The notes below the pieces were generated by a model. The model was not told the DNA's origin. It ran no database searches and saw nothing but the letters and a program-made list of their open reading frames with translations. Both the position numbers and the translations under genes were made by a program. 523 bases of DNA from Escherichia coli (GTDB taxonomy: Bacteria; Pseudomonadota; Gammaproteobacteria; Enterobacterales; Enterobacteriaceae): assembly GCF_003334765.1 (NCBI RefSeq), contig NZ_QOWT01000116.1; one strand, written 5' to 3'. Below, one piece after another: positions 1 through 523 of this stretch (position 1 is the stretch's first letter; every line of letters begins with the position of its first letter).

Positions 1-351
1 GGTGGTCACTGCGATACCGCGATTGCCTCTGCGCTTTCCATCATCGTCGCGCCGCTGGTACGCGGTCGTATTCCGACGCTGGTGGATAACGTGCTGACCT
101 GCATCACCCCGGGCTCCAGTGTCGATATTCTGGTCACAGACCACGGCATCGCTGTTAACCCGGCACGTCCGGAGCTGGCAGAACGTCTGCAGGAAGCGGG
201 GATCAAAGTGGTTTCTATTGAGTGGCTGCGTGAACGTGCGCGTCTGCTGACCGGTGAGCCACAGCCGATTGAATTCACCGACCGCGTCGTTGCCGTTGTG
301 CGTTACCGCGATGGCTCGGTGATCGATGTTGTGCATCAGGTGAAGGAATAA
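1..351 (+). CDS. citF: Citrate lyase alpha subunit (citrate CoA-transferase), C-terminal fragment; 5'-partial, CDS continues upstream of the window. Stop codon TAA at 349-351.
   Basis: Frame 1 is open from base 1 to TAA at 349-351 (GGHCDTAIASALSIIVAPLVRGRIPTLVDNVLTCITPGSSVDILVTDHGIAVNPARPELAERLQEAGIKVVSIEWLRERARLLTGEPQPIEFTDRVVAVVRYRDGSVIDVVHQVKE*). I recognise this translation as the C-terminus of enterobacterial CitF from memory, not from a search. Codon usage is E. coli-like (CTG Leu, CGT Arg, GGC/GGT Gly, ATC Ile). It is immediately followed by citX, as expected for citCDEFXG. The ORF-track start at 82 is an internal GTG (Val) codon, not the true start. Confidence 0.9.
   Translation, partial: GGHCDTAIASALSIIVAPLVRGRIPTLVDNVLTCITPGSSVDILVTDHGIAVNPARPELAERLQEAGIKVVSIEWLRERARLLTGEPQPIEFTDRVVAVVRYRDGSVIDVVHQVKE
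342..348 (+). promoter_or_regulatory. Ribosome-binding site (Shine-Dalgarno, GAAGGAA) for citX, embedded in the last codons of citF
   Basis: GAAGGAA at 342-348 has its AGGA core at 344-347, leaving a 7-nt spacer (348-354) before ATG 355. This matches the anti-SD complement and sits within the canonical spacing range. It overlaps the citF codons AAG-GAA and the stop. Confidence 0.6.
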
Positions 352-354
352 GTC

Positions 355-523
355 ATGCACCTGCTTCCTGAACTCGCCAGCCACCATGCGGTGTCAATTC
401 CCGAGCTGCTCGTCAGCCGGGATGAAAGGCAAGCACGGCAACACGCCTGGCTCAAGCGCCATCCTGTTCCACTGGTCTCCTTTACCGTGGTTGCGCCTGG
501 GCCGATTAAAGACAGCGAGGTCA
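355..523 (+). CDS. citX: Apo-citrate lyase phosphoribosyl-dephospho-CoA transferase (holo-citrate lyase ACP synthase, EC 2.7.7.61), N-terminal fragment; 3'-partial, CDS continues downstream of the window.
   Basis: ATG at 355-357 is preceded by a Shine-Dalgarno at optimal spacing. The open frame runs to the window end, giving [57 protein letters not shown] recognise this as the N-terminus of E. coli-type CitX from memory, and its position directly downstream of citF matches the known operon order. It is absent from the supplied ORF track, presumably because it has no stop inside the window. Confidence 0.88.

Follow-up and report, generated by a model that had tools for sequence, protein, structure and literature searches.

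A reading frame omitted from the open reading frame list of a 523-base Escherichia coli window is almost certainly the start of citX

Does the reading frame that runs off the end of this stretch of Escherichia coli DNA belong to a real gene, and are the open reading frames (ORFs) that were listed for the same stretch genes at all? The whole stretch that we analysed, which we call the window, is 523 bases long. At a threshold of at least 60 amino acids, the mechanical ORF list for the window has two entries, 82..351 on the plus strand and 6..278 on the minus strand. To be listed, an ORF must have its stop codon inside the window; ORFs that cross an end of the window are left out. A preliminary description of the sequence had claimed that the 5' portion of citX is absent from the list, and indeed there is no entry for the frame of 355-523. 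It had put the omission down to the lack of a stop codon within the window, which is also correct, as the frame runs off the end and such ORFs go unlisted. More precisely, citX is omitted because its stop codon lies about 380 nt past the end of the window. Two further open frames that touch an edge are unlisted as well: plus-strand frame 2 from 344 to 523 (46 codons from the ATG at 386) and a minus-strand frame from 393 to 1 (129 codons from the ATG at 387). Being unlisted is therefore not specific to citX, and it is homology that singles citX out.

The window covers the citF-citX junction of E. coli, and it contains a single long plus-strand frame (frame 1) with one interruption. Frame 1 has no stop codon before the TAA at 349-351 and is then open from 352 to the end of the window. 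An overview of the features is given in Table 1.

Table 1. Coordinates of the genes, signals and open frames in the 523-base window.
Feature	Position	Strand	Length	Details
citF, 3' end (citrate lyase alpha subunit)	1..351	+		Codons 395-510 in 1-348; TAA stop at 349-351
Shine-Dalgarno-like GAAGGA	342..347	+		In the last citF codons (AAG GAA); GGA 7 nt from the citX ATG; putative ribosome-binding site
Spacer GTC, citF stop to citX start	352..354	+	3 nt	citX and citF share a reading frame
citX, 5' part	355..523	+		ATG 355; 56 codons without a stop (355-522); continues past the window end
citF-tail entry of the ORF list	82..351	+	89 aa	Artificial start at internal GTG 82 (CitF Val-422)
Shadow ORF	6..278	-	90 aa	In the ORF list; judged not to be a gene
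Spurious ORF, TTG start	336..455	-	39 aa	In the ORF list; spans the citF-citX junction
Shadow ORF	1..387	-	129 codons in the window	From the ATG at 387..385 (citX codons 11-12) to the left edge

The translation of 1-348 matches the NCBIfam model for citF, TIGR01584, with E = 2.6e-51 over profile positions 376-492 of 492. Its score of 174.8 bits is below the whole-protein cut-off of 501 bits because just 116 of the 510 residues of the protein are in the window. The match takes in the C-terminal end of the model and closes at the stop codon. The annotated start of citF is 1,182 nt upstream of base 1 of the window (in locus L001, citF is at 2819-4351 and the window is at 4001-4523). Thus, the listed plus-strand ORF is the tail of citF, mis-started at an internal GTG, as the preliminary description had it.

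To describe variation within E. coli, we compared nine alleles: the window, the copy on an island in strain 746 (see below), K-12, GF131, and five others that span the range of identity. Among these alleles, 25 sites are polymorphic in the citF part, and all 25 are at codon position 3 and are synonymous. The GC content by codon position is alike in the two parts of frame 1 (0.72/0.44/0.63 for the citF part and 0.75/0.42/0.64 for the citX part). One base of the window, G258, is absent from the eight other alleles; it lies in a GAG codon for glutamate and is synonymous in citF.

The 56-residue translation of 355-522 is significantly similar to CitX in the HMM libraries. It matches the NCBIfam subfamily model for CitX of enterobacteria (NF002383, E = 3.6e-21, profile positions 1-56 of 185), TIGR03124 (E = 3.2e-12), and the Pfam CitX family (PF03802, E = 4.7e-10). 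The scores of this fragment, which has only 56 of 183 residues, are 75.5 and 46.7 bits, as compared to the curated NCBIfam cut-offs of 158 and 105.25 bits; these shortfalls are expected because about 30% of the protein is in the window. The full-length CitX proteins of the loci one mismatch away from the window score above the curated cut-offs (265 versus 158 bits and 204 versus 105 bits). Full-length CitX also matches PDB entries 7dcm/7dcn ([quoted passage not shown]) with E = 6.5e-120. It belongs to a protein cluster of 2,969 members; the 15 members listed are all 183 amino acids long, and each of them except the representative bears a name from its source, which is always CitX or holo-ACP synthase.

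The genomic context of the frame agrees with these matches. By megablast, 5,422 of 5,426 complete E. coli genomes contain the window (95-99.8% identity), and all records listed from these 5,422 genomes are annotated as citF followed by citX. Strains 746 and GF131 each differ from the window at one base; their citX has 552 nt (183 amino acids), begins 3 nt past the citF stop codon, and overlaps citG by 26 nt. The 56 residues from the window are identical to the first 56 amino acids of the 183-residue CitX of these two strains, and codon 57 of citX begins at base 523. In the matching genomes, the frame has citF ending 3 nt upstream and is flanked by citC, citD, citE, citF, and citG. The best explanation, which we hold to be nearly certain, is that 355-523 holds citX codons 1 to 56, citX being the fifth gene of the E. 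coli citrate-lyase operon citCDEFXG(T), directly behind citF. The preliminary description had named this frame citX, and the family HMM matches, the RefSeq annotation, and the near-identical loci with a 183-amino-acid citX all bear it out. It had also proposed two observations that would speak against citX, namely a lack of similarity of the 355-522 translation to CitX proteins or a stop codon immediately downstream. Neither was found: the similarity is significant, and in loci one base from the window, the frame runs on to a stop after 183 codons.

Like the frame in the window, K-12 citX (b0614, EC 2.7.7.61, PDB 7dcm/7dcn) lies 3 nt after citF, is in frame with it, and is followed by an overlapping citG. 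K-12 CitX is identical to the translation of the window at 55 of 56 residues; the exception is a conservative change (A31 in the window and V31 in K-12). At the DNA level, K-12 is 97.1% identical to the window, with 15 differences; besides the one residue change, there are synonymous differences. The allele in the window is nearer to a group with ST131 (99.4% identity), GF131, and the island copy of strain 746 (both 99.8%) than to K-12.

A window that ends at codon 56 could also hold the beginning of a truncated or inactivated remnant of citX, so that the 56 codons would not be part of a working gene in the source genome. No exact (100%) match to the window was found among the complete E. coli genomes, which would fit a remnant; G258, however, is the sole mismatch to the best matches, and this only private change of the window is a synonymous one in citF rather than a change in citX. 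Every E. coli allele that we fetched has an intact citX of 183 codons. Furthermore, purifying selection is visible in the citX part: of its four polymorphic sites among the nine alleles, three fall at codon position 3, and the fourth produces A31V. We consider a remnant to be very improbable. Judging from its relatives, the source genome probably has an intact citX, of which the window holds codons up to the 56th.

CitX takes 2'-(5''-phosphoribosyl)-3'-dephospho-CoA from the triphosphoribosyl precursor and attaches it to a serine of the acyl-carrier subunit CitD in its apo form, which gives holo-citrate lyase. In the published descriptions of this system, CitG produces the triphosphoribosyl-dephospho-CoA precursor, CitX (EC 2.7.7.61) puts the prosthetic group on the acyl-carrier subunit, and citrate lyase is activated via acetylation by CitC (PMC10798043, PMC2735749).

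Where does the translation of citX begin? Because the in-frame codon at 349-351 is TAA, the stop codon of citF, ATG 355 is the earliest possible start of the open frame. The final two codons of citF include AAGGA (343-347). Ribosomes on citX would most likely be coupled to citF or re-initiate after it, because the ATG is 3 nt past the citF stop codon and the AAGGA is embedded in the end of citF. Scans of both strands of the window for sigma-70 promoters and intrinsic terminators found none, and hence there is no sign in the window of a separate promoter for citX or of a terminator after citF. An Rfam scan of both strands, with E up to 1, found no RNA family.

To see how this junction is arranged in other bacteria, we surveyed GTDB with one representative genome per species (approximately 100,000 bacterial and archaeal species). 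The query, a degenerate pattern built on the VRYRDGSV motif at the CitF C terminus, identified 46 loci with the 3' end of citF. A citX start on the same strand was found at 40 of the 46 loci, and 33 of these 40 starts are within -10 to +15 nt of the citF stop codon. Most of these loci, and most of those from Enterobacterales, have AAGGA(A/G)TAA and then a citX start 2-5 nt later. The in-frame spacer of 3 nt recurs in Escherichia, Citrobacter, Hafnia, Yersinia, Edwardsiella, and some Serratia and Vibrio loci. Across E. coli alleles, position 353 in the spacer is either T or C. Note that TAA GTC alone separates the in-frame citF and citX, so that read-through of the stop codon would fuse the two proteins.

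The frame also contains a second candidate start, the in-frame GTG at 391 (residue 13). If this were the true start of a real citX, then residues 1-12 would be an untranslated leader. The Pfam and TIGR03124 models of the CitX domain do begin at residue 13, and the distant homologues from Azospirillum, Klebsiella, Enterococcus, and Lactiplantibacillus align only from residues 12-15. But position 1 of the subfamily profile NF002383 aligns to residue 1, the residues MHLLPE are conserved in Escherichia and Citrobacter, and an ATG at 2-5 nt past the citF stop codon is kept in many genera. The deposited chain of PDB 7dcm comprises residues 1-183, which is also the length of the 15 cluster members mentioned above. 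And no purine-rich Shine-Dalgarno sequence precedes GTG 391 (the upstream sequence is AACTCGCCAGCCACCATGCG), whereas ATG 355 has AAGGA at 7 nt. A start at GTG 391 therefore has very little chance of being correct, and we rejected it, given the lack of a Shine-Dalgarno sequence and the preference of the subfamily profile and of the relatives for ATG 355. The geometry of the junction and its conservation argue strongly that citX is translationally coupled to citF and that ATG 355 is used.

What of the listed ORFs on the minus strand? The preliminary description had called the antisense ORF spurious. The frame at 6..278 has no match among the NCBIfam families, and a collection of about 15 billion proteins does not contain its exact sequence. 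Because this frame and citF share their third codon positions, codon-position analysis is not enough to discriminate it, and we used amino-acid variability instead. Among the nine alleles, 6 of 91 residues vary in the antisense translation, versus 0 of 116 in CitF on the same DNA. When the tail of citF was resampled with synonymous codons, a run of the observed length or longer arose in the frame of 6..278 in 29% of trials. The call made in the preliminary description is thus sustained for this ORF. The ORF at 336..455 on the minus strand has no NCBIfam match either, and 2 of its 40 residues are variable among the nine alleles. There were also no family matches for the plus-strand frame 2 run at 344..523 (ATG 386) or for the minus-strand run at 521..339.

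The longest antisense frame is the one that begins at 387. In whole genomes (K-12 and GF131), it extends to 464 amino acids and lies opposite almost all of citF (L002:7004-8398, on the plus strand of that locus and antisense to citF; L004:4993-6387, on the minus strand). Could it be a genuine overlapping gene, similar to nog1? Antisense gene nog1 was reported from enterohemorrhagic E. coli within citC of the same operon (PMC4683798), and the window, too, has antisense ORFs inside a cit gene; the 464-amino-acid ORF would be the main candidate and 6..278 the other. It is in its favour that K-12 and GF131 both have an ATG-started antisense ORF of 464 codons. Also, the codons TTA, CTA, and TCA are scarce in citF (1 of 81 leucine and serine codons in K-12) and in citE (0 of 50), as compared to approximately 14% in the neighbouring genes; the proportion in citG is 15 of 62.

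Other observations go against an overlapping gene. The frame opposite citF is broken elsewhere in E. coli, in strain SCPM-O-B-8794, in which the longest run is 335 codons; it has 5 stop codons in E. albertii and 5-10 in Citrobacter. Between K-12 and GF131, the 464-amino-acid product has 30 amino-acid differences, versus 3 for CitF. The product has no family match and is absent from the collection of 15 billion proteins, and antisense ORFs opposite citF are unannotated in every RefSeq genome listed. Fully open antisense frames appeared in 23-29% of synonymous resamplings of the citF part of the window. Finally, citF is mentioned neither in the nog1 paper (PMC4683798) nor in a 2020 preprint on embedded antisense overlapping genes in E. 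coli. Unlike nog1, the antisense ORFs of citF have neither conservation nor protein-level constraint, and we judge them to be shadow ORFs. That any of them is a genuine gene is extremely unlikely, and we rejected it: conservation of the frame and constraint on the protein were not found, and the family and collection tests were negative.

The antisense frames opposite citF and citE are long because the codons TTA, CTA, and TCA are nearly absent from these two genes. In K-12, citF and citE are at L002:7040-9491, and the antisense open frames are 464 amino acids (citF) and 348 amino acids (citE). Going by codon usage and by the absence of constraint at the protein level, we judge the 464-amino-acid frame to be a shadow ORF and a by-product of the codon usage of citF.

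Some E. coli genomes have two copies of the region, which raises the question of which copy the window comes from. A second citCDEFXG cassette is located on an island flanked by insertion sequences in 33 of the 5,426 complete E. coli genomes. In E. coli strain 746, the island is at NZ_CP023353.1 908984-919870 (L003:13505-24391). Nine of the ten best matches to the window are genomes in which the region occurs twice. For five of those genomes (including strain 746), we checked the matches against the coordinates of the island, and the best-matching copy is the island cassette. The cassette (5.2 kb) is 98.8% identical to the canonical GF131 cluster over 5,207 nt and 97.8% identical to that of K-12; homology to the canonical cluster extends from 6 nt into citC to 19 nt before the citG stop codon. 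Upstream of the cassette, the island encodes a GntR regulator, a lactonase-like amidohydrolase, and an MFS transporter. The amidohydrolase resembles 4-sulfomuconolactone hydrolase (E = 8e-40, below the cut-off). Downstream of the cassette is a full-length paralogue of AcnB.

The window has one mismatch to the island copy and one mismatch to the canonical GF131 copy (dpiBA-citCDEFXGT), and because it is one mismatch from each, its 523 bases cannot assign it to either locus. We regard it as improbable that the window is from the rare island copy of citCDEFXG, a possible undescribed tricarboxylate module, and not from the canonical dpiBA-citCDEFXGT locus. A literature search on the island found nothing relevant. 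Speculatively, the island could be a module that uses a tricarboxylate (aconitate, isocitrate, or their lactone) via aconitase and citrate lyase. Whichever locus is the origin of the window, the finding about citX is unaffected. Several matches to the window from the plasmid collection (NZ_CP141089.1, NZ_CP134663.1, and NZ_OL790696.1) are records of 4.8-4.9 Mb and look like misfiled chromosomes.

The arrangement of citX behind citF is shared with other clusters. Clusters from Citrobacter, Serratia, Yersinia, Vibrio, Gluconobacter, and Enterococcus faecium have the same citF-citX-citG order with a tight or overlapping citF-citX junction, and in Gluconobacter and E. faecium this order is found on plasmids. 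The CitX proteins of other citCDEFXG clusters range from 80% down to 28% identity. The N-terminal extension of 12 residues is specific to Escherichia and Citrobacter-like CitX. The citX of Klebsiella pneumoniae (citWX-citYZ cluster) belongs to the same family and has the same role in prosthetic-group synthesis (PMC2735749). However, the K. pneumoniae gene is unlinked from citCDEFG and lies behind a gene for a 2-hydroxycarboxylate transporter (locus L010), whereas citX of E. coli lies within the lyase operon. The record for this locus, the Klebsiella "plasmid" NZ_OP378649.1 (270 kb), has the housekeeping genes rluA and rapA as well as citX.

Overall, the junction of citF with citX and the function of citX in E. 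coli are already known from textbooks, and nothing here is biologically new. The preliminary description had rated its observation as an annotation caveat with no biological novelty, and we uphold that rating. When an ORF list requires a stop codon and the window is short, genes that are cut by an edge are lost, shadow ORFs are retained, and the tail of a gene is started at the first internal start codon. The lesson is one of method only: whether or not a frame has an entry in such a list does not suffice to separate real ORFs from spurious ones, which calls for homology or for gene calling that is aware of edges.
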